From an uncultured Gammaproteobacteria bacterium (lineage in GTDB: Bacteria; Patescibacteriota; Patescibacteriia; Patescibacteriales; CAYMCJ01), in contig CAYNBD010000001.1 in assembly GCA_964395755.1 (NCBI GenBank), positions 1-39,531 on the forward strand: 39,531 nucleotides of DNA. Reading direction: 5' to 3'. The translations under genes were made by a program, and so were the position numbers. Below the pieces are notes generated by a model. It saw nothing but the letters and a program-made list of their open reading frames with translations. It ran no database searches and was not told where the DNA came from. Of the stretch, positions 2,689 through 38,646 are shown in pieces (within the stretch, counting starts at the first letter, position 1; every line of letters starts with the position of its first letter).

Positions 2689-5460
2689 ATGGCGAAAAAA
2701 AAGACCGTCAAGAAAGTTAAGAAAAACCCAAAAAAGAAACCAACGGTGAAAAAAACCGCCCGGATTAAGGTTGCTAAAAAAGCAATCAAGCAGGCGGTTA
2801 AACCCAAAAAGCCGGCCGGTAAAATTGTTGAACCCGCGGTTAAGAAACCGGTTAAGCCGGTTGTTAAGAAATCCAAGGCAGTTCCGGTGAAGAAAATTTT
2901 GGCCGCTGTTCCGTCCCGACCCGTCGGGGAGGAAAAGAAACCAAAGAGCCCGGAGACGGAGGACAAACAGCCGGCCATGGCGGCCGCCAGGATCGTCAAC
3001 GGCAAGGAAAAAACCGCCTTCGGCCTGGTGGAGCCGCGGGCAATCGTAGAAGAGATGAATAAGTCGTATTTGGATTACGCCATGAGCGTGATTGTCAGCC
3101 GGGCCCTGCCGGATGTGCGCGACGGCCTAAAACCGGTACACCGCCGGATTTTATACGCGATGTGGAGCATCGGCCTTAGGCCGAGCGCGAAATTCAGAAA
3201 ATCCGCCACGGTCGTGGGTGAAGTTCTGGGCAAATACCATCCGCACGGCGATACCGCGGTTTACGATTCCATGGTCAGGATGGCCCAGGATTTTTCCCTG
3301 CGCTACCCCCTGGTGCGCGGCCAGGGCAATTTCGGTTCCATGGACGGCGACGGGGCCGCGGCCATGCGTTATACCGAGGCCAAGCTGGCGTCCATTGCCG
3401 AAGAATTATTATTTGACATTGAAAAAAATACGGTTGATTTCGCGCCTAATTTTGACGGCTCGCAAAAAGAGCCCCTGGTTTTGCCTTCCCGTTTGCCCAA
3501 CTTGCTTTTAAACGGCACCATGGGCATCGCAGTCGGCATGGCCACCAACATTCCGCCCCATAATCTGGGCGAGCTGGCCGGCGCCGTTACCCATTTGATT
3601 GACAAGCCGGAAGCGAGCGTGGAGGATTTGATGCAATACGTCCAGGGACCGGATTTTCCCACCGGCGGCGTTATTTATAACCGCCAGGACATTCTCCAGG
3701 CCTATGCCACCGGCAAGGGCGGGATCGTGATGCGCGGCCGGGCGGAAATCATAGAAACTAAAAGCGGCCTGTTCCAGATAATTATTACCGAGATTCCCTA
3801 CCAGGTGAACAAGGCCAGCTTAGTGGAGAAGATTGCCGAGCTGGTCAAGAACAAAAAACTGGAAGGCATCAAGGATTTGCGGGATGAATCGGACAAGGAA
3901 GGAGTGCGCATCGTGGTGGAACTCAAGAAAGACGCTTATCCAAAAAAAATACTGAATAGTTTATATAAACATACTCAGCTGCAGGAAATTTTCCACGTCA
4001 ATTCCCTGGCCCTGGTAGACGGCATCCAGCCCAAAGTGCTGACTTTGAAAATGATGCTGGAAGAATATATCAAGCACCGGGAAGAAGTGGTGCGGCGCCG
4101 GACCCAGTTTGATCTGGACAAAGCCCGGGACCGGGCCCATATCCTGGCCGGGCTGATGATCGCCCTAAACAAGATTGACGCCGTCATTAAGACCATCAAG
4201 GCCAGCCGCGACAAAGAGGTGGCGCGCAAGAATTTAATGCGCCAGTTTAAATTAACGGACAAGCAGGCGGTCGCCATCCTGGAAATGAAGCTGGCCACTT
4301 TGGCCAATCTGGAAAGGTTAAAAATAGAAACCGAACTCAAAGACAAGAAAAAATTAATTACGGAGCTGGAAGCGATTTTGAAATCCCGCGTCCGGATCAA
4401 GGGCATCATCAAGGAAGAATTGAAAGAGGTGGTAAGAAAGCACGGGGACGAACGCCGTACCAAAATCGTGGCGCACGGAGTCAAGGACATTTCCGTCGAA
4501 GACCTGGTGCCGAACGAGGAAACCATGGTAATGATGACCCGGGACGGCTATATCAAGCGCCTGTCGCCCGATACTTTCAAGGTGCAGGGCCGGGGCGGCA
4601 AAGGCGTCATTGGTTTAACCACTAAGGAAGAGGACATGGTTGAATTTTTATTTACTACCATGGCCCATAATGACATTTTGTTTTTTACCACCCGCGGCCG
4701 GGTATTCCAGCTCAAGGCCTATGAAATTCCCCAGGCTACCCGCACGGCCAAAGGCACGCCCATCGTTAATTTTCTCCAGCTTTTGGGCGAGGAAAGAATA
4801 ACTTCCATTCTGCCTTTGGATAAAATTTCCGCCAGCAAGTTTTTGTTTTTCGCCACGGAAAGAGGGCTGGTCAAGAAAGTGAAAATCGAGGCTTTCGCCA
4901 ATGTCCGGCGCTCCGGGCTGATTGCGATTAAAATCAGGCCGGAAGACAAGCTGATTTGGGCCAAGTCGACCGGCGGTAGCGACCACATTCAGCTGATTAC
5001 CGCCGGCGGGCAGGCGATCCGTTTTCGGGAAAGCGACGTCCGGGACATGGGTCGGAACGCGGCCGGGGTAATCGGCATTCGTCTGAAAAAGGACGATATC
5101 ATGGTTGGCATGGGGGTTATTAAGAGTGATAAGGAAAAATTAAAAAAATACCAGGTGTTAACGGTGATGGAGAACGGCTTTGGCAAGCGCACCCCCCTGA
5201 ATTTGTACAAAGTTCAGGGCCGGGGCGGCTCCGGCATCAAGACCGCCCGGGTAACGGCCAAGACCGGCAAGCTGACCAACGCTTTTGTCGTTAATGCCGA
5301 GAGCATGAAAGATAAGGACCTGATCGTAATTTCGGAAAAGGGCCAGGTAATCCGCCTGCCGTTTAAGACTGTGAACCAGACCGGGCGCGACACCCAGGGT
5401 GTGCGGGTAATGCGCTTTAAAAACGAGGGCGACAAAGTGGCGTGCGTGACGTGGACATAA
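2689..5460 (+). CDS. gyrA: DNA gyrase subunit A with an N-terminal lysine/proline-rich extension of about 96 aa
   Basis: [27 protein letters not shown]; catalytic Tyr in [10 protein letters not shown]; GyrA box QGRGGKG; six beta-pinwheel blades. Residues 1-96 are AKKK/KKPVKP repeats. An alternative ATG at 2977 would give a canonical-length protein. Confidence 0.95.
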
Positions 5461-5510
5461 AAAAATAAGAAAAATAAGAAAAATAAGAACGAGAAGAATC
5501 AGGAATCAGG
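5461..5510. repeat. Tandem AAAAATAAG x3 followed by AACGAGAAGAATCAGGAATCAGG
   Basis: Read directly. 5480-5499 is identical to the reverse complement of 6717-6736. Confidence 0.85.
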
Positions 5511-5537
5511 GTTGTTTAATACAATTGACAGTTATTT

Positions 5538-5619
5538 GTCATTGCGAGGATCCCCGACCGAACGAAGCGGGTGTCGGGGGACGAAGCAATCTCTATTTTG
5601 CATTTAGGTGATTTTAAAG
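5538..5619 (+). repeat. Dispersed element copy 1: GTCATTGCGAGG - variable GC hairpin - CGAAGCAATCTCT - ATTTAGGTGATTTTAAAG
   Basis: It shares both flanks and the 18 nt tail module with the minus-strand copy at 38107-38192. Its inner hairpin CCCCGAC/GTCGGGG is unique to this copy. Confidence 0.8.
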
Positions 5620-6517: not shown

Positions 6518-6633
6518 GACACTTTTTTGAAATTTTGCTAAGCTGTTATAACGTTTAAATAATTAACGGAATTTGCGTGTTTAATGTGCTGTACGGTATA
6601 TAAGTTTGGGTGTTCTGAATACTAATGAAGATG

Positions 6634-6737
6634 AAAGAAAAATAAGAGAAATAAGAAAAATAAAAAAATAAGAATGGTTAACCTACTTGCTCTTTTTATT
6701 CTTATTTTTCTTCTCGTTCTTCTCGTTCTTATTTTTT
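6634..6737. repeat. Imperfect palindrome built from AATAAGAA / GAACGAGAA words
   Basis: The left arm GAAAGAAAAATAAGAGAAATAAGAAAAATAAAAAAATAAGAA faces the right arm CTTTTTATTCTTATTTTTCTTCTCGTTCTTCTCGTTCTTATTTTTT. The same word family occurs at 5461-5510 and 27134-27208. Confidence 0.85.
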
Positions 6738-6776
6738 ATACCCTGGCATTCTGAATGCGTAATTTCTACTGCAAAT

Positions 6777-7827: not shown

Positions 7828-7928
7828 AAATTGGTAATTTGGAAAATGTTAAACCCCTGTGATGAACACGGGGCAGACAGACGACAGGCCCAAATTACCA
7901 ATTACCAATTACCAATTTCAAATTACCA
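7828..7928. repeat. Word palindrome (ATTACCA/TGGTAAT words) around a GC hairpin
   Basis: AAATTGGTAATTTGG ... CCCCTGTG/CACGGGG ... CCAAATTACCAATTACCAATTACCAATTTCAAATTACCA. Confidence 0.8.
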
Positions 7929-7951
7929 GTTTTTATTTTTCTTATTTTTTT

Positions 7952-8671
7952 ATGGCTTTAGTTTTTGACATTGAAACCGTGGGAGCGGATTTCGACCGCC
8001 TGGGCAAGACCACCCAGGATAGTTTGACGCGCTGGATCAGGCGCGAGGCCGGGGATGATGCCGGCAAATACGAGGTGATGTTCCGGGATTTAAAAGAAGG
8101 CCTGGGATTTTCGCCTTTGACCGGGGAAATTGTGGCTTTCGGGGTTTATGATACGGACAAACGCCAGGGCGCGGTTTATTTTCAGGCTCCGGAAATGAAG
8201 CTGAAAGAATGGAGCGCGGATACTTTTATTTTTAAACCCCGGACCGAGGCGGAAATGCTTAAGTCGTTTTGGCGGGGGGCGAAAGCTTACCGCGAGTTTG
8301 TCAGCTTTAACGGCCGCTCTTTTGACGCGCCTTTCATCATGCTTCGGTCGGCGGTTCATAAAATCAAGCCGACGAAAAATTTGATGTCTAACCGCTATTT
8401 GTCTTATCAGCCCAGCGCGGTCCGGCACATTGATTTATTGGACCAGTTGTCTTTTTACGGCGCGGTCCGGCGCCGGGGAAATCTGCACCTTTATTGCCAG
8501 GCGCTGGGAATAAAAAGCCCCAAGGCTTTCGGCGTGAGCGGCGACGACATTAAGCGGCTGTTTCAAGACAAGGAGTACAAGAAGATCGCCGCATACAACA
8601 GCTGGGATCTTTTGGCCACGGCCGCATTGTACAAACGCTGGGAAGAATATGTTAAAATTTCTAATTTCTAA
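7952..8671 (+). CDS. DEDD-type 3'-5' exonuclease (RNase H-like, PolB-exo/YprB-like)
   Basis: ExoI LVFDIETVG, ExoII FNGRSFDAPF, ExoIII YNSWDLLATAALY. The start was moved to ATG 7952 because 7859-7951 is repeat sequence. Confidence 0.7.
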   Translation: MALVFDIETVGADFDRLGKTTQDSLTRWIRREAGDDAGKYEVMFRDLKEGLGFSPLTGEIVAFGVYDTDKRQGAVYFQAPEMKLKEWSADTFIFKPRTEAEMLKSFWRGAKAYREFVSFNGRSFDAPFIMLRSAVHKIKPTKNLMSNRYLSYQPSAVRHIDLLDQLSFYGAVRRRGNLHLYCQALGIKSPKAFGVSGDDIKRLFQDKEYKKIAAYNSWDLLATAALYKRWEEYVKISNF

Positions 8672-8758
8672 TAAAATTTTAAATGCCAAGCGATTAAAGA
8701 TTAATGTTTTTGGCATCAAAAATTTTTGCATTAGACATTTTATTAGAAATTAGAAATT
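8656..8758. repeat. Perfect 22 nt inverted repeat (TTTCTAA words) enclosing an inner hairpin
   Basis: AATTTCTAATTTCTAATAAAAT (8656-8677) is the exact reverse complement of 8737-8758. The inner stem is ATGCCAA/TTGGCAT (8683-8716). The left arm overlaps the last codons of the exonuclease gene. Confidence 0.9.
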
Positions 8759-8776
8759 ATAATTTAGAAATTTTTT

Positions 8777-12096: not shown

Positions 12097-13923
12097 ATGA
12101 AAAAACTTATTAAGAATTTTTTTATTTTCTTTATTGTTTTTCTGGCCATCGCGGCTTTGTTCAGTGCTTACGGCGGCAATGGGGATAAAGAACAGACGGT
12201 CGGGATTGAAACTCTGATTAGCCAGATAGACAACGGGGAAATTACGGCTATTTCGGTCCAGGGCGATGAACTGAAAATCACTTTGCAGAACGGGGGCGAA
12301 GAAATCGTTCAAAAAGAGACGGGCGAATCCTTGTCCGCGCTGCTCAATAATTTCGGCGTGGATAAAGAAAAATTATCCGCTATTAACATTGAAGTGCGAG
12401 ACGAATCCGGCTTAAATTACTGGCTGGTGACGATTTTGCCGTTTTTACTGCCCTTTCTATTAATCGGCGTATTTGTTTATTTTATGTTGCGCAGCGTTCA
12501 GGGCGCTAACAGCCGGGCGATGATGTTCGGTCAGTCCCAGGCCAAAGAATTCGGCCGCGACCAGAAAGACAAGGTTACTTTCGAGGACGTGGCCGGAGCC
12601 AAGGAAGCCAAGGAGGAATTAAAGGAAATCATTGAATTTTTGCGTTTTCCCAAAAAATTCCACGGATTGGGAGCGCGCATCCCGCGCGGGGTTTTGCTTT
12701 TGGGTGCGCCTGGAACCGGCAAGACCCTGATGGCCCGGGCCGTGGCCGGCGAGGCCCAGGTGCCTTTTTTTCATATTTCCGGGTCGGAATTTGTGGAGAT
12801 GTTCGTGGGCGTGGGCGCTTCCCGGGTGCGAGATTTATTCAAGCGGGCTAAAAAAAATGCGCCCTGCATTTTGTTTATTGATGAGATTGACGCGGTCGGG
12901 CGCCGGCGGGGAGCCGGTTTGGGCGGCTCGCACGATGAGCGTGAACAAACCCTTAATCAGATTTTGGTGGAGATGGACGGATTTGAGCCGCATACCAATG
13001 TTATCGTTATTGCCGCCACCAACCGGCCGGACGTCCTGGATCCGGCTTTGCTGCGACCGGGGCGCTTTGACCGCCGCATCGTGGTTGACGAGCCGGATAT
13101 CAAAGATCGGGAAGAAATATTAAAGGTTCATGCCCGGCGCAAACCCCTGTCTAAGGAAGTCAGCTTGCGCAGAATTGCCGAGCGCACTCCGGGTTTCAGC
13201 GGCGCCGACTTGTCTAATTTGTTGAACGAAGCCGCCATTTTGGCCGCCCGCCGGAACATGAAGATGATTAAAATGGAAGAATTATATGAGGCGATTGAAA
13301 AAGTAATGATGGGCCCGGAAAGAAAATCAAGAATTTTGTCAGAGGCAGAGAAAAAAATTACCGCTTATCACGAAGCCGGGCACGCTTTGGTCGCTCATTT
13401 TTTGCCCCATACGGACCCGGTGCATAAGATTTCCATTGTCGCCCGCGGTCAGGCCGGCGGCTATACTTTAAAATTGCCGGTGGAGGATAAACATATGCAT
13501 ACCAAGTCCGAATTCGTGGAAGAACTGGCCGTGCTTTTGGCCGGGCATGTGACGGAAAAAGAAATTTTCGGCGAGGTTACCACTGGCGCCACTTCTGATT
13601 TGCGCCGCGCCACCGCGTTGGCCCGGCAGTTGGTCACCGATTACGGCATGAGTGAAAATCTGGGGCCGCGCACTTTCGGTGAAAAAGAAGAGATGATATT
13701 TTTAGGCCGGGAAATTCATGAACAAAGGGATTACAGCGAAAAAGTGGCTGAGCAGATTGACAAGGAAATTTCCGATTTTATTGGCCAGGCCGTGAAGAGA
13801 GCCGACGGCATTATCAAGGCCAGGAATAAAGAATTGGCAAAGGTGGTGGCAGCCCTGCTGAAAAAGGAAACTTTGGAAAAAGAAGAATTTGAGCAGATTG
13901 TGGGCGAGAAAAGCAAGCGGTAA
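12097..13923 (+). CDS. ftsH: ATP-dependent zinc metalloprotease FtsH
   Basis: N-terminal TM segments, Walker A GAPGTGKT, Walker [32 protein letters not shown], zinc motif HEAGHA. Confidence 0.97.
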
Positions 13924-17110: not shown

Positions 17111-17149
17111 AGTCTGTTGATTGTTTATGCTAATAACATTAGATTAGAT

Positions 17150-17719
17150 ATGATTAACAAAAAATTTATTCAAAAATTGAAAAAGGAATATGACAATTGG
17201 GAAAGCGAAAGGCGGCAGATTATCAGTTTGTCCAATCTCGTTTTGCACGGTTCCAAGCGGGTTATTTTTGCCCTGCACCGGGGCGACGTTAAGACTGCAG
17301 CCATGAAATTGGATGAAGTTGAAAAGTTGTTGTATCAATTGGAGAAAAAATTCGGTTTTATCAGGATTTTGGCAGAAGGGGCCTATCGGGCCGGGGCGGA
17401 GGAATACGTGGAAGCGAAGATGTTTTTGCGGGTGATGAAAGGAGACAAAGTTGATAAAATTAACAAGATTAAAGTTAATTTTGACGGTTATTTGGGCGGT
17501 ATTTGTGATTTAACCGGCGAGTTGGTGCGGCGGGCGGTTAATCTGGCTGCGGCCGGAAGAATAACGGAAGTGGAAAAAATAAAACAGGCCATCGGTGACA
17601 TTATGGCCGAGTTGGTTGAGTTTGATTTAACCGGCTATTTGCGCACCAAGTATGATCAAGCCAAAAGCAATTTAAAAAAAATTGAGCAGATTGATTATGA
17701 AATTAAGATAAGAAAGTAA
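17150..17719 (+). CDS. Translin-family protein
   Basis: GYLGGICDLTGELVRRAV matches the translin/TRAX signature (YLLG..DLTGEL.R). All-helical, 189 aa. I prefer ATG 17150 over TTG 17117. Confidence 0.65.
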   Translation: MINKKFIQKLKKEYDNWESERRQIISLSNLVLHGSKRVIFALHRGDVKTAAMKLDEVEKLLYQLEKKFGFIRILAEGAYRAGAEEYVEAKMFLRVMKGDKVDKINKIKVNFDGYLGGICDLTGELVRRAVNLAAAGRITEVEKIKQAIGDIMAELVEFDLTGYLRTKYDQAKSNLKKIEQIDYEIKIRK

Positions 17720-17730
17720 TTGGTTATCAT

Positions 17731-18870
17731 ATGCGAAAAAAATATTTCCAGGCGATTGCCGTGATGGTCGGTTACGTTATCGGTGTGGGAATGTTCGGTT
17801 TACCGTTTTTAATTTCCCGGGCCGGTTTGCTGGCCTTTTTTGTTTTGCTGGTTGTTTTGTCTTTGGCTCAGTATCTCATACATTTAATTTATGCCAACTT
17901 GATTTTGGTCACCAACGGTTATCACCGCTTGCCCGGTTATGTCGGGATTTATTTTGGCAAAAAGGGCAAGAATTTGGTTTTTATCGCCAAGCTGATAGGA
18001 AGCTACGGCGCCTTGTTGGCCTATATTATTATTACCGGCATTTTTCTTAATCAGCTGTTATCCCCCCTTATGGGCGGCAGTGAATTTATCTATGCTACCA
18101 TCCTGTTCGCCCTGGAGGCCTTGGTGGTTTTTTTCGGCATCGGCATGGTGGCCAGAGTGGAACTTTTTATGACTGCCTTTCTTTTGCTGGCGGTGATGAT
18201 GATCACTTGGCGGGGTTGGGGCGCGATTAATTTGGACAATTATACTTTAGTGAGCTGGCCTTTGTTTTTTATCCCTTACGGCGCCATGCTTTATGCCCTG
18301 GACGGCAGCGGGGCCTTGCCCCTGGTAGCCAAAATTTTAAACAAGAAGCGGGAGGATATGAAAAAGGTGGTGCGGATAGGTACTTTTTTGCCGGCATTGG
18401 TGATTATGGTTTTTGTTTTGGTGATTGTCGGGATCAGCGGCGGCCAGACCACCCCCGACGCTTTGGTCGGGGTGAGCGGGATACTTAAAGACGGCGTAAT
18501 ATTGTTTGCTCTTATTTTCGGAGTGCTTACCATGATAACCTCTTTTTTCGGCGTGGCGGAAGCGATCAAGGAAACTTTGTGGTGGGATTTTAAAATGAAT
18601 AAACATTGGTCCTGGGCTTTGGCCGTTTTTGTTCCTTATGCGCTGTATTTGTTAGGTTTTAAAAATTTAATTAACGTTATCGGTTTTTCCGGCGCCGTGG
18701 CCGGCGGTTTCTGCGCCATTATGCTGATGTTGGTATTTTTGAAATTGAAAAAAAGCAGAACCGAGTTGGCGCTTTTTAATTATAAGCCGGGGAAATTAAT
18801 TTCTTATTTTTTGCTTGGGCTTTTTGTTGCCGGAATAATTTACGAAATTTATTATTTTATTAATTTATAA
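17731..18870 (+). CDS. Amino acid permease-type transporter (about 11 TM)
   Basis: N-terminus AIAVMVGYVIGVGMFGLPFLISRAG is typical of the Trp/Tyr-permease / Aa_trans type. Multiple TM segments. Confidence 0.65.
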   Translation: MRKKYFQAIAVMVGYVIGVGMFGLPFLISRAGLLAFFVLLVVLSLAQYLIHLIYANLILVTNGYHRLPGYVGIYFGKKGKNLVFIAKLIGSYGALLAYIIITGIFLNQLLSPLMGGSEFIYATILFALEALVVFFGIGMVARVELFMTAFLLLAVMMITWRGWGAINLDNYTLVSWPLFFIPYGAMLYALDGSGALPLVAKILNKKREDMKKVVRIGTFLPALVIMVFVLVIVGISGGQTTPDALVGVSGILKDGVILFALIFGVLTMITSFFGVAEAIKETLWWDFKMNKHWSWALAVFVPYALYLLGFKNLINVIGFSGAVAGGFCAIMLMLVFLKLKKSRTELALFNYKPGKLISYFLLGLFVAGIIYEIYYFINL

Positions 18871-23622: not shown

Positions 23623-23856
23623 AAGTTTTAGTTAAATTATTAAAGAATTCTGTTGTTAAGGGAGAGGTTGGGATAGACACAAAAATGTTTTTAATTTTAG
23701 CAAAAAATTGTGAAAATTAATAAATTTTTAGATTATTTTCTTCAAGTCCAAATAAAAACATTTTTAGGCCGGGAAATTATTAAAAATTTCTAGGTCGGGT
23801 TATTTTGGTGTGATAAAATAACTTCATTAACCACCCTAACAACAGAAGATTGATTT

Positions 23857-26326: not shown

Positions 26327-27127
26327 ATGAGAAATATTAAAATCATTTTCATCGGCGACATTAGCGGCCGCATCGGCCGGCAGGCCGTGGCTAAAATTTT
26401 GCCCAAAATTAAAAAGCAGTACCAGCCGGATTTGGTCATTGCGAATGCGGACAACATTGCCCATGGTTCCGGCATTACCGAAGATACTCTTAAAGAGTTA
26501 ATGGCGGTCGGGATTGATTATTTTACCAACGGCGACCATTGTTTTGATCGGGCCAAGCAACTGGAATGCTACGATAAGCTGCCGGTTATCAGACCGGCTA
26601 ATTATTCGCCGGAAGCGCCCGGCAAAGGGTATGCTGTTTTGAAAATTAGGGGGCAAAAATTTTTACTGCTTAATTTAATCGGCCGGGTGTTTATGGACAA
26701 GGACCATGAATGTCCGTTTAGGCAGGCCGGGGAAATTTTGGCTATGTTTGCAAAAGAAAATTTATCTGCTATAATAATTGATATGCATGCCGAAGCCACC
26801 TCGGAAAAAGTTTCCCTGGCTCATTATCTGGACGGACGGGTGAGCGCGGTTCTGGGCACGCATACCCATGTTATGACCGCGGACGCGAACATTACGGATC
26901 AGGGCACGGCTTACTTGACTGATGTCGGCATGACCGGAGCCGCGGATGAATGCATAGGCGTAGCTAAGGAAGGCATTATCAAGACATTTTTGAGCCAGAT
27001 CAAGTATCCGCACGTGATTCCGGAAAAAGGCCGGGCCATGCTCAACGCGGTTTTGGTGGAGATAAATCCCAGGAATGCCCGGGCAACCGTGATTAAACCG
27101 ATTATTAAATTTGTTAATATAAAATAA
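26327..27127 (+). CDS. ymdB: YmdB-like metallophosphoesterase (2',3'-cyclic-nucleotide 2'-phosphodiesterase family, TIGR00282)
   Basis: IIFIGDISGRIGR, NADNIAHGSGIT, TNGDHCFD, DMHAEATSEK, GTHTHVMTAD, TDVGMTG. I prefer ATG 26327 over TTG 26294. Confidence 0.85.
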   Translation: MRNIKIIFIGDISGRIGRQAVAKILPKIKKQYQPDLVIANADNIAHGSGITEDTLKELMAVGIDYFTNGDHCFDRAKQLECYDKLPVIRPANYSPEAPGKGYAVLKIRGQKFLLLNLIGRVFMDKDHECPFRQAGEILAMFAKENLSAIIIDMHAEATSEKVSLAHYLDGRVSAVLGTHTHVMTADANITDQGTAYLTDVGMTGAADECIGVAKEGIIKTFLSQIKYPHVIPEKGRAMLNAVLVEINPRNARATVIKPIIKFVNIK

Positions 27128-27133
27128 TTTTAA

Positions 27134-27208
27134 AAAGAGAAATAAGTAAAATAAGAAAAATAAGAAATATTTTTTATTCTTTCGCTTATTCTTATTTTCT
27201 TATTTATT
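27134..27208. repeat. Palindrome of AATAAGAA words (third locus of this family)
   Basis: AGAGAAATAAGTAAAATAAGAAAAATAAGAAAT faces TTATTCTTTCGCTTATTCTTATTTTCTTATTT. Confidence 0.85.
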
Positions 27209-27578: not shown

Positions 27579-27651
27579 TGCGCCCAGGAGGATTCGAACC
27601 CCCGACCGTTTGCTTAAGAGGCAACTGCTCTACCAGCTGAGCTATGAGCGC
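27579..27651 (-). tRNA. tRNA-Lys (anticodon CTT), 73 nt, no encoded CCA
   Basis: Hand-folded cloverleaf: acceptor GCGCTCA/TGGGCGC, D stem GCTC/GAGC, anticodon loop CTCTTAA, T arm GGGGG-TTCGAAT-CCTCC, discriminator A. Confidence 0.85.
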
Positions 27652-27657
27652 TCATTT

Positions 27658-27738
27658 AGTTATAAAGTTTAAAGTAGAAAGTTATAAAATAAATTTTAAC
27701 ACTTTTAACTTTACAACTTTATAATTTTTACTAATTAG
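27658..27738. repeat. Word palindrome (AAGTT/AACTT words) between tRNA-Met and tRNA-Lys
   Basis: AGTTATAAAGTTTAAAGTAGAAAGTTATAAAA faces TTTTAACACTTTTAACTTTACAACTTTATAA. Confidence 0.8.
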
Positions 27739-27812
27739 TAGCTGGGGTGGGGATTGAACCCACGACCTTAGCGTTATGAGTGCTACGCTCTAACCAACTG
27801 AGCTACCCAGCC
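27739..27812 (-). tRNA. tRNA with CAT anticodon (elongator Met or lysidine-type Ile2), 74 nt
   Basis: Acceptor GGCTGGG/CCCAGCT (G1-U72 wobble), D arm GCTC-AGTTGGTTA-GAGC, anticodon loop CTCATAA, T arm GTGGG-TTCAATC-CCCAC. It lacks the three G-C pairs of initiator anticodon stems. Confidence 0.8.
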
Positions 27813-27815
27813 ATG

Positions 27816-27887
27816 TGCTCCCGTCAGGACTCGAACCCAAAATCCTTGGTCCGAAGCCAAGTGTGATATCCATTTCACCACGGGAGC
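27816..27887 (-). tRNA. tRNA-Arg (anticodon TCG), 72 nt
   Basis: Acceptor GCTCCCG/CGGGAGC, D arm GTGA-AATGGATA-TCAC, anticodon stem CTTGG/CCAAG with loop CTTCGGA, T loop TTCGAGT. Confidence 0.85.
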
Positions 27888-36786: not shown

Positions 36787-38034
36787 TTATATGCTGGGAA
36801 TCGGGAATTGTTTGCACATTTCCCGGACATCGGCTTTTATTTTATTTAAAACCTCAATTTCATTTTTATGTTCTATCGCCCGGTTAATCCAGGAAGCGAT
36901 TTTTTTTATTTCGTTCTCTTTCATGCCGCGGCTGGTGATTGCCGGCGTGCCGAAACGGACGCCGGAGGGATTCATGGGCGGGTTGGGGTCATTGGGTACG
37001 GTGGAGCGGCTGACGGAAATACCGACTTTGTCCAGAATTTCTTCCGCGTCCCGACCGCGCAAATTTTTGCTGGTCATATTAACCACCATTAGATGATTAT
37101 CAGTCCCGTTGGAAACCAGCCGGAAGCCGAGGTTCATAAATTCTTGGGCCAGGGTTTCAGCATTTTTAATTACCTGGCGGGCGTATTTTTTGAATTCCGG
37201 CTTTAGGGCTTCGCCAAAAGCCACGGCTTTGGCGGCGTTAATGTGGTCATGCGGCCCGCCCTGCATTCCCGGAAAAACGGCTTTGTCCACCTGTTTAGCC
37301 CATTTTTCCCGGCACATTATGATAGCGCCTCGGGGGCCGCGCAGGGTTTTATGGGTAGTGGTAGTTACGACATCAAAAAACGGCACCGGATTATTCATTT
37401 CTCCGGCCGCAATCAGCCCGGCCGTGTGGGCGATGTCGGCGAAAGTGTAAGCATTGACTTCATCGGCAATTTCTTTAAATTTTTTCCATTCCACTTCCCG
37501 CGGGTAAGCGCTATAGCCGGCCACGATCATTTTCGGTTTTTCTTTTTGGGCGATTTGTCTGACTGCTTCCATATCAATCCGGCCGCTTTGGGGATTAACT
37601 TCGTATTGGAAGAAGTTATAAAGCATGCCGGAGAAATTAACGGGGTGCCCGTGGGAAAGATGGCCGCCGTGGTCAAGCTTTAAGCCCAGGACTTTATCTC
37701 CCGGTTTTAGAAAGGCCATATAAACAGACGCATTGGCCGGTGAACCGGAAAGAGGCTGGACATTGACGTGCTCGGCGGAAAAAAGTTTTTTCGCCCGTTC
37801 GATAGCTATAGTCTCCACCTTGTCTATGTTTTGGTTGCCGCCATAATAGCGGTGTCCGGGATAGCCCTCGCTGTATTTATTGGTTAAAACCGTTGCCATG
37901 GCTTCCAGCACCGCTTTAGACGCGTAATTTTCCGAAGCGATTAGTTCCATTTCTTCGCTTTGTCTTTTTATTTCCTGCTTGATGGCCGCCATAATTTCCG
38001 GGTCCTCTGCGGATAGATTTTTATAATCAAACAT
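36787..38034 (-). CDS. glyA: Serine hydroxymethyltransferase
   Basis: LIASENY, YSEGYPG.RYYGG, TTTTHKTLRGPRG (PLP lysine), GGPH, NPSG.R.GTPA.T.RG. Confidence 0.97.
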   Translation of the reverse strand: MFDYKNLSAEDPEIMAAIKQEIKRQSEEMELIASENYASKAVLEAMATVLTNKYSEGYPGHRYYGGNQNIDKVETIAIERAKKLFSAEHVNVQPLSGSPANASVYMAFLKPGDKVLGLKLDHGGHLSHGHPVNFSGMLYNFFQYEVNPQSGRIDMEAVRQIAQKEKPKMIVAGYSAYPREVEWKKFKEIADEVNAYTFADIAHTAGLIAAGEMNNPVPFFDVVTTTTHKTLRGPRGAIIMCREKWAKQVDKAVFPGMQGGPHDHINAAKAVAFGEALKPEFKKYARQVIKNAETLAQEFMNLGFRLVSNGTDNHLMVVNMTSKNLRGRDAEEILDKVGISVSRSTVPNDPNPPMNPSGVRFGTPAITSRGMKENEIKKIASWINRAIEHKNEIEVLNKIKADVREMCKQFPIPSI

Positions 38035-38068: not shown

Positions 38069-38192
38069 TGTCATTGCGACACCCGCCCGCTGGCGGGGAA
38101 GCAATCTCTTTAAAATCACCTAAATATAATTACAGAGGTTGCTTCGCCCCCCGCACCAGTTTTTCAAACTGGAGCGGGGCTCCTCGCAATGA
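38069..38192. repeat. Inverted pair of the conserved-flank / variable-hairpin element
   Basis: The short plus copy (38069-38108) is GTCATTGCGAC-CCCGCC/GGCGGG-AAGCAATCTCT. The long minus copy (38107-38192) is GTCATTGCGAGG-CCCCGCTCCAGTTT/AAACTGGTGCGGGG-CGAAGCAACCTCT-ATTTAGGTGATTTTAAAG. Confidence 0.85.
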
Positions 38193-38250
38193 CGAATAAA
38201 GGCGGTGATTTAACCAAATGCGCAAGTATTAAATTAATAAATTAGAGTTT

Positions 38251-38646
38251 TTATTTCAGAAAACCGAAATGCTTTAGAGCGGGAATGATGTTCGGAGCCA
38301 AGTCAGACGGTAAATTATCAATATCCAGCCAGGCCCACTCCCGGATGTCAGGCCCAGGCTTTATTTCTCCCTCGCGTTCGGCCAGGAAATGAACCAAGAT
38401 AACGTCAATCACGCCCTCCGGTTTTTCTTTGCGGGCAAAGGTGATAAATGGTTGCTCATTCAGGATTTTAGTATCAATGCCCAGTTCTTCTTTAGCTCGT
38501 TTTTGGGCCGCTGCGGCTAAACTTAAGTTAAAATCATCCATTTGGCCGCCGCAGAATTTCCAGAAATTCGTGTCGCCGTGCTTGTCCAGGAGCGCTTGTC
38601 CGTTTTCCACGATCACCGGCCCGGCAGCGATTATGGTTTTTTGCAT
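38251..38646 (-). CDS. NUDIX hydrolase
   Basis: Nudix-box-like GGQMDDFNLSLAAAAQKRAKEELGI, 131 aa. Confidence 0.7.
   Translation of the reverse strand: MQKTIIAAGPVIVENGQALLDKHGDTNFWKFCGGQMDDFNLSLAAAAQKRAKEELGIDTKILNEQPFITFARKEKPEGVIDVILVHFLAEREGEIKPGPDIREWAWLDIDNLPSDLAPNIIPALKHFGFLK

Follow-up and report, generated by a model that had tools for sequence, protein, structure and literature searches.

Three hairpin repeats on a Patescibacteria contig as likely members of a widespread variant of the Ssn-related DNA repeats

The contig CAYNBD010000001.1 of assembly GCA_964395755.1 (39,531 nucleotides, analysed over its whole length and hereafter called the window) harbours three copies of a short hairpin repeat, in which conserved flanks enclose a GC-rich apical stem that is different in each copy. 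These three elements are likely DNA hairpin repeats of the Ssn-related motif (SRM) kind, with Ssn as the cognate protein family. They are a distinct and very widespread variant of the known Ssn-related repeats, and neither a new RNA nor a classical REP. The elements of the window belong to a very large family that spans many phyla and phages. The association of this family with Ssn-homologous genes is close and specific, and inverted pairs of copies enclose these genes. An earlier note on this DNA, made from the sequence alone, had mentioned a nuclease target among other possibilities. This is the best current reading, and the partner is a single-domain GIY-YIG nuclease of about 95 amino acids belonging to the Ssn family.

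Sequence reading and pattern searches located the three copies, of the form (T/C)GTC-ATTGC-GA…GAA-GCAA(T/C)-CTCT, with their common flanks where the earlier note had placed them. The 3' flank GAAGCAAYCTC has exactly three exact occurrences in the window, against 0.93 expected with one mismatch allowed. Including tag and tail the copies are 41-61 nt long, and each folds as a hairpin. The flanks are conserved, as had been proposed, but they are not single-stranded: ATTGC and GCAAT are mutually complementary and form a basal helix of 5 bp in both RNA and DNA folding. The unit of the element thus comprises this helix at the base, an internal loop rich in purines, and an apical hairpin that varies. 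The tag is TGTC in copies A and B, and CGTC in copy C. The palindrome is directly followed by a C in all three copies (GCAAT-C, GCAAT-C, and GCAAC-C).

Copy A (5537-5594, forward strand) is located downstream of gyrA. It possesses the T-GTC tag (5538-5540), the basal helix ATTGC (5541-5545) / GCAAT (5586-5590), the internal loop GAGGAT / GACGAA, the apical stem CCCCGAC (5552-5558) / GTCGGGG (5573-5579), and the tail CTCT (5591-5594). Copy B (38069-38109, forward strand) represents a short subtype and is antisense to the transcription of glyA and the NUDIX gene. It consists of T-GTC (38070-38072), ATTGC (38073-38077) / GCAAT (38101-38105), the loop GACA / GAA, the apical stem CCCGCC (38082-38087) / GGCGGG (38092-38097) closed by the loop CGCT, and the tail CTCT (38106-38109). 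Copy C (38134-38194, reverse strand) is a paralogue of copy A and is sense to glyA and NUDIX transcription. Its parts are C-GTC (38191-38193), ATTGC (38186-38190) / GCAAC (38138-38142) with an A·C mismatch at the base, the internal loop GAGGAG / GGCGAA, an interrupted apical stem of 6+7 bp with a GAA triloop, and the tail CTCT (38134-38137). All the stems reported in the earlier note were recovered, that of copy B one base away from its former position.

Copies B and C share the 216-nt spacer between glyA (36787-38034, reverse strand) and the NUDIX gene (38251-38646, reverse strand), and the gene positions confirm this location. There they form a tail-to-tail (convergent) dimer at 38069-38194, whose CTCT tails face each other 24 nt apart. 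The pair had been described as head-to-head, which has to be corrected, as it is the 3' CTCT ends that face each other. The composite palindrome of about 125 nt proposed for this place is only partial, because the cores of B and C differ. Folded as single-stranded DNA (ssDNA), the whole B/C region gives a four-way structure of -40.3 kcal/mol (z = -8.8). Copies B and C fold better than shuffled sequences (z = -2.6 to -4.2); copy A alone folds no better than shuffles (z = -0.5 to -0.9).

The statement that each copy has a different core holds for the apices, but not for the whole of copies A and C. These two are alike over about 90 nt, including TTATT upstream, the lower apical stem CCCCG…CGGGG, and an 18-nt 3' extension, and differ only at the apex. 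The extension, ATTTAGGTGATTTTAAAG, follows the CTCT of copy A after 7 nt, at 5602-5619 (forward strand). Its second copy at 38108-38125 (reverse strand) belongs to copy C and is located within the B/C spacer, where 2 nt of it coincide with the tail of B. In both cases it starts 7-8 nt past CTCT and includes a Shine-Dalgarno-like AGGTGA. Two exact copies are present in the window, against 0.12 expected, and none in the 2.08 Mb of fetched loci. The extension is lineage-specific and outside the family consensus, because family conservation ends at the 3' CTC. As a conjecture from the sequence, it might be the remnant of a 5' untranslated region with the ribosome-binding site of a lost ssn gene. 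Intergenic A-rich repeats with a 9-nt period, (AATAAGAAA)n, are found on the forward strand at 5448-5508, directly 5' of copy A, and also at 6625-6676 and 27116-27176; their complements are located at 6683-6740, 7923-7954, and 27171-27203.

The extent of the family was studied with the pattern GTCATTGCGA-N6-36-GAAGCAAYCTC in a viral collection and in a collection with one genome per species. The pattern matched at least 120 phage contigs and at least 120 genome contigs. The genome matches listed cover about 20 phyla, among them Chloroflexota, Patescibacteria, Bacteroidota, Cyanobacteria, Planctomycetota, Omnitrophota, Nitrospirota, Firmicutes, Desulfobacterota, Alpha- and Gammaproteobacteria, Atribacterota, and others. 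They include isolate genomes such as Sporomusa malonica, Chryseobacterium herbae, Anabaena cylindrica, and Chloroflexus islandicus. Among the 720 copies detected in the fetched loci, 472 distinct cores of 5 to about 50 nt were found. GCGAAGC is the most frequent of them and results in a minimal element of 28 nt, followed by GGAGCGCAGCGAC; GCGCAGC, GCGTAGC, and GCGGAGC are also present. Across the family, sequence conservation extends no farther than TG-TC at the 5' end and CTC at the 3' end, and position -1 is a T in 67% of the copies. The search pattern imposed the GTC, yet this is also kept in variants with an altered basal helix.

Phage copies are abundant between structural genes (portal, scaffold, capsid, and terminase), with up to five copies in 6.5 kb, for instance in locus L016 (133-6161). 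Dimers in the genome loci comprise 46 tail-to-tail, 11 head-to-head, and 24 direct pairs, and the gaps of the tail-to-tail pairs are 9-68 nt. No copy of the element was present in about 67 kb of sequence from the window's closest relatives, which are Patescibacteria with NUDIX orthologues of about 70% amino-acid identity. The NUDIX-glyA synteny is not kept in these relatives, and they offer no orthologous spacer for an empty-site comparison. Full-text literature searches with the motif and with LRFARND, a spurious peptide, yielded nothing apart from primer noise.

The partner gene was searched by clustering the open reading frames (ORFs) near the elements in 240 pattern-selected loci. Near elements of phage contigs, the clusters correspond to phage structural genes only. 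Near elements of genome contigs there was one notable small family, encoding GIY-YIG proteins of 96 amino acids. All three GIY-YIG genes in these 240 loci are bracketed by inverted copies, one of them with the cousin motif GTCATTCTGAG…CGAAGAATCTC. An independent set consisted of 80 metagenomic loci that were chosen solely for encoding a relative of these GIY-YIG proteins, 67 of which had enough flank. An element was present within 120 nt of the GIY-YIG gene in 62 of the 67 loci (upstream in 49, downstream in 49, and on both sides in 36). Up to 120 nt from the gene there are 7.74 elements per kb, and farther out 0.62 per kb, which is a 12-fold difference. The commonest layout is a sense element, the gene, and an antisense element, with 19 tail-to-tail pairs 298-344 nt apart; eight pairs show the mirror layout. 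The B/C dimer has the geometry of this commonest repeat–ssn–repeat cassette, with a short spacer in place of the gene of about 290 bp.

The associated proteins have 95-96 amino acids, and their only Pfam match is GIY-YIG (PF01541). The protein of locus L144 shares 44% identity with the SsnA orthologue of Neisseria gonorrhoeae over 89 of 94 residues (E = 2e-26 pairwise, 9e-17 against a 7.3-Gb database). This orthologue is a chromosomal 94-aa ORF that is itself flanked by the NTS repeats CGTCATTCCCGC…GCGGGAATC. The associated proteins are also homologues in the sense of PMC11893778 (E < 1e-10, at least 75% coverage), and the protein family comprises at least 8000 clusters at E < 1e-10. Ssn homologues of Omnitrophota, Deferribacterota, Nitrospirota, Bacteroidota, Chloroflexota, and KSB1 are 60-73% identical to a Planctomycetota query; such identity between distant phyla points to frequent horizontal transfer of Ssn genes. 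No Ssn structure is deposited, the nearest being the UPF0213 protein 1zg2 (E = 1.5e-7). Ssn-type genes bracketed by a cousin motif, GTCAT(T/C)CTGAG…CGAAG(A/G)ATCTC, were observed in loci L182 (4057-4431) and L326 (440-1060, a Planktothrix plasmid). The cousin has the same tag, GA/GAA loop and tail, and a different basal helix. In L326 the Ssn-type gene sits between an MmeI-type restriction-modification gene and DISARM drmA.

The Ssn family was described by Chenal et al. (2025, Nat Commun 16:2388, PMC11893778) as cutting ssDNA beside hairpin repeats. According to the same study, SsnA of Neisseria meningitidis is a single-domain GIY-YIG protein of 94 amino acids (CDD cd10448), which binds and cuts the NTS (CGTCATTCCCGCGMAVGCGGGAATCYRG, containing dRS3) as ssDNA only, and not as double-stranded DNA, RNA or the reverse strand. 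Cleavage takes place a few nucleotides upstream of the GTC tag. Cleavage depends most on the three nucleotides that precede the palindrome, and binding depends most on the C just past it (PMC11893778). Homologues of ssnA across phyla are flanked by at least one SRM in 71% of cases, and on both sides in 42%. Among genomes with over 200 SRMs, 81% have a gene for an Ssn homologue. In Neisseria the Ssn system restricts transformation by NTS-bearing DNA, and the authors likened NTS-ssnA-NTS to an insertion sequence and to RAYT-REP (PMC11893778).

In this reading, the element is a directional ssDNA hairpin with an unpaired (T/C)GTC tag, the conserved ATTGC/GCAAT helix, a purine-rich (G·A-type) loop, a free apex, and a C after the palindrome. 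An Ssn protein encoded outside the window, or formerly present, may recognise copies A, B, and C in the source genome when they become single-stranded, which could happen during replication, repair or DNA uptake, and would nick just upstream of each GTC. The variable apex would be tolerated because recognition would rest on the tag, the basal helix, and the 3' C. The elements would then be non-autonomous, REP-like passengers of the repeat–ssn–repeat cassette, and the B/C dimer would be a cassette without its gene.

Several observations weigh against assigning the elements to Ssn. Searches with tblastn and Pfam detected no ssn gene in the 39.5-kb window, and no Patescibacteria label appears among the named ones of the best 120 Ssn homologues. 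The phage contigs (L001-L120) bear many copies and encode no Ssn homologue. The published SRM string HGTCWYN(0-2)YYVSBRHN(0-5)WNVSBRGN(0-2)RNCYNB found the Neisseria NTS control, but none of the 720 copies and no sequence of the window; this string is a search heuristic and not a functional definition. At the Neisseria ssnA locus and among the CGTC repeats of PMC3733652 the dimers are mostly head-to-head, whereas here tail-to-tail pairs prevail. Activity was lost in Neisseria when the palindrome was given another sequence that preserved the hairpin (PMC11893778), so that a tolerance of arbitrary apices by Ssn is something we only infer.

The earlier note had proposed that pairing is preserved while the sequence is replaced, and this holds across the family. 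Perfect stems of at least 5 bp were found in 23% of 444 unique cores and in 3.4% of shuffled cores, and stems of at least 6 bp in 12.6% and 0.7%, respectively. None of 50 shuffle replicates attained the observed mean. This direct test of stem length against shuffles was used instead of nearest-neighbour energy z-scores, because nearest-neighbour folding under-detects the 2-bp mini-hairpins of GCGNAGC, a DNA motif reviewed as exceptionally stable (PMC13037366). One hundred nine different arm sequences occur among 167 stems of at least 4 bp. Triloops make up 127 of about 297 loops, chiefly GAA, GCA, GTA, and GGA, and GNA triloops closed by C-G prevail in the longer cores. The basal helix also shows compensatory variants, including ACTGC/GCAGT (seven times), ATCGC/GCGAT, ACCGC/GCGGT, ATGGC/GCCAT, and ATTCT/AGAAT, and GTC, GA, GAA, and TCTC stay constant across these variants.

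Turnover of the elements was assessed by flank-to-flank comparison among the fetched loci. Presence and absence at orthologous sites was found for L032 and L102 (a 29-nt indel that starts exactly at GTC), for L022/L049 and L118, and for L191 and L228. In nineteen pairs, elements at the same site keep their base and flanks and have different cores. At one intergenic site of phages the core is GCGAAGCC, TCCCGATTTATCGGGA or CCCTGAGCTCGGCAAAGGG, depending on the relative; these three unrelated apical cores stand between identical basal arms and flanks in L049 (4799), L088 (719), L100 (5450), L113 (6511), L057 (1556), and L104 (6728). Copies A and C of the window parallel these phage swaps, with a conserved base and a replaced apex. 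Such turnover is consistent with an element that is mobile or subject to conversion. Isolated 5' half-sites (GTCATTGCGAG) that lack a 3' partner were observed a few nucleotides upstream of complete elements in L144 (5022-5074), L006 (about 2242-2300), and L246 (1425-1485), and resemble traces left by recombination or by abortive events at the element.

The same-site swaps also bear on the selection on structure that the earlier note had deduced. The covariation is real, but because whole apices are swapped at one site it need not reflect selection on each stem; replacement or template switching would explain it equally well. The apex may even arise from an active process at the tip, in which Ssn nicks the DNA and resynthesis proceeds by fold-back or template switching, or in which copies convert one another through their conserved basal arms of 10-11 nt. 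The SRM class would then be a self-renewing ssDNA element that spreads across phyla and phages and swaps its apex in place. We put this forward tentatively and consider it rather unlikely. If true, a basal module near-identical over about 20 phyla, together with Ssn proteins that are 60-73% identical, would place it among the most widely transferred bacterial mobile units, undescribed as such.

A further possibility is that the elements are relic or passenger repeats without a current partner, derived from horizontal transfer or from the loss of ssn and persisting neutrally. Neither selection nor recognition would then account for the paired apices; these would have arisen by a mutational process, namely template switching at quasi-palindromes or gene conversion among the copies. 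The window without an ssn gene, its relatives without elements, and the phage contigs with copies and without ssn are in line with this scenario, as are the whole-apex swaps with unchanged base and flanks and the folding of copy A, which under nearest-neighbour parameters does not exceed that of shuffles. Nevertheless, the scenario is improbable. All three window copies have preserved the GTC tag, the GA/GAA loop bases, and the 3' C, which argues against long neutral decay, and the basal helix is altered only by the A·C mismatch of copy C. The high share of SRM-rich genomes that encode an Ssn homologue (the 81% of PMC11893778) speaks against it as well. Moreover, it concerns activity in one genome only and leaves the identity of the element unchanged.

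The earlier note had also considered a family of small structured RNAs. As a transcribed RNA, the element could be such a small RNA, or an mRNA 3'-end or processing hairpin that insulates the NUDIX/glyA messages, or those of gyrA and the genes downstream. No match to the elements was obtained in Rfam even at E values up to 10, and nearby there were only chance-level scores (E of at least 0.6, far below gathering); the sole gathering-threshold matches in the window are three tRNAs. Scans of the window detected no terminator-like (T-run) or promoter-like site within the elements, and the single promoter-like match in the region of copy A lies downstream of it, at the rate of shuffles. The motif is strongly asymmetric, with the GA/GAA loop on one strand and UC/UUC on the other, so an RNA function would be expected to show a preference of orientation. 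None was seen between co-directional genes (56 sense to 50 antisense in phage contigs, 55:43 in genome contigs), where the counts rest on crude ORF calls by longest-ORF tiling and their "inside gene" categories are to be disregarded. Within the window itself, copy B is antisense. G·T and A·C mismatches are about equally frequent (70 and 58), triloops, among them the GNA type, outnumber the tetraloops typical of RNA, and SsnA ignores RNA (PMC11893778). On the other side, every window copy is intergenic between co-directional genes, the hairpins are stable by folding, and, as argued in PMC3733652, many REPs function as transcribed RNA elements; such a role is conceivable here as a secondary one. 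As the primary nature of the element, RNA is quite improbable. Readings as known RNA motifs were rejected. For a K-turn, the basal helix would fall out of register in a by-eye reading of the internal loop. Hammerhead or other ribozymes, suggested by the GUC, showed no three-way junction core by eye and no Rfam match.

The organisation had likewise been compared with REP/BIME. The inverted dimers bear this out, but classical REP identity does not hold, as the GTAG tag is absent and the tag is (T/C)GTC. A REP/BIME mobilised by a RAYT, which is an IS200/IS605-like tyrosine transposase, would account for short extragenic hairpins with an unpaired 5' tag, for their frequent inverted dimers, and for the presence/absence polymorphism at orthologous sites, and the overall logic is similar to that of REPINs (PMC3337134; PMC3733652). 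The associated RAYT/TnpA-REP gene that the earlier note proposed to look for was not found: Pfam detected no Y1 transposase domain in the 34 ORFs of the window, and no transposase family recurs beside the element in the 240 loci. The gene that the repeats do bracket encodes a GIY-YIG nuclease, and PMC3733652 linked no transposase to CGTC/TGTC-tagged repeats. This explanation is largely refuted and only barely conceivable.

Other features of the window were observed besides the repeats. An AT-rich 38-nt inverted repeat lies between two ORFs (8652-8689 / 8725-8762), with 87% complementarity and 35 nt between its arms. The exact 19-mer ATTTTTAGGCCGGGAAATT is present at 13698-13716 and 23760-23778, 10 kb apart, with degenerate copies at 18779-18797 and 23786-23804, and may be another dispersed motif. 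The ORF at 17117-17719 (forward strand) matches the Translin family (PF01997, E = 1.9e-21). Translin is a family of ssDNA- and RNA-binding proteins better known from eukaryotes and archaea, and is unexpected in a Patescibacteria-like window. The GyrA ORF (2689-5460, forward strand) encodes about 137 residues ahead of the topoisomerase domain, and the DNA there is rich in lysine codons (repeat copies at 2700-2742); alternatively, this N-terminal stretch may come from a mis-assigned start codon. A cluster of three tRNA genes is located at 27579-27887 (reverse strand).

The consequences for the window are modest: its elements are ordinary representatives of an already known type of repeat, and constitute no new RNA gene and no regulatory device of glyA. 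The hypervariable apex and the spread across phyla and phages are the parts that most deserve attention. The analysis gives a concrete identity and a candidate partner protein to a repeat that litters many phyla, including bacteria of the candidate phyla radiation (Patescibacteria), and phages, and that is routinely mis-translated into spurious ORFs. Since the published search motif misses this whole and very large class of sites, surveys of Ssn targets are incomplete. In this class, the conserved module for recognition (tag, basal helix, G·A loop, and 3' C) and the free apical hairpin are distinct parts, which is useful for studies of Ssn specificity and for the design of ssDNA-cutting tools. 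Related phages, with their empty sites and with apices exchanged at one and the same site, are a natural system in which the movement and diversification of repeats can be studied.

Regarding known systems, the commonest core of the element is exactly GCGAAGC, and so coincides with the mini-hairpin DNA GCGNAGC / GCGNNAGC (PMC13037366). That motif is physico-chemical and not a genetic element, and here it is merely the apex of a larger conserved unit.

Like REP/REPIN sequences with RAYT (Nunvar 2010; Bertels and Rainey 2011; PMC3337134), the repeats are short tagged hairpins whose inverted doublets are the apparent unit; an enzyme gene is flanked by its own repeats, and the repeats far outnumber the gene. 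The enzyme of REPs is an HUH/Y1 transposase and their tag is GTAG, whereas here the enzyme is a GIY-YIG nuclease and the tag (T/C)GTC. REPs are uniform within a genome and lineage-specific, while the basal sequence of the present element spans about 20 phyla and its apex varies with each copy. Literature searches for GIY-YIG together with REP or RAYT returned nothing relevant.

The CGTC/TGTC-tagged repeats (Di Nocera, De Gregorio, and Rocco 2013, BMC Genomics 14:522, PMC3733652) form a group that includes the Neisseria dRS3 and the Rickettsia RPE-4 and RPE-6. They share with our element a tag at one end, a stem that opens with complementary A-T pairs, a short unpaired tail, frequent dimers, and the lack of an associated transposase. 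Their four families differ in having continuous stems of 8-9 bp, loops of 4-5 nt and a CCA tail, as well as mostly head-to-head dimers (46 tail-to-tail against 11 head-to-head pairs here), and they occur mainly in Alphaproteobacteria. The ATTGC/GCAAT arms do not appear in the text of PMC3733652. Judged by its sequence, the element has the architecture of this super-family, yet falls outside the four described families.

With the SRM/NTS repeats (PMC11893778) the element has in common that it is a directional, extragenic hairpin repeat of 20-50 nt in many copies, with an unpaired GTC directly 5' of a palindrome that starts with AT, and with a conserved C right after this palindrome. Inverted copies bracket a single-domain GIY-YIG gene of about 95 amino acids in the loci of the family, though not in the window, and the encoded proteins are similar to Neisseria SsnA (the 44% identity given above). 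The palindromes differ, being ATTGC-GA(G)…(C)GAA-GCAAT here and ATTCCCGCG…CGCGGGAAT in the NTS, and the tail is CTC here and CYRG there. The element also differs from the SRM/NTS repeats in its purine-rich internal loop, in its apical hairpin of arbitrary sequence and length, and in its abundance in phage contigs.

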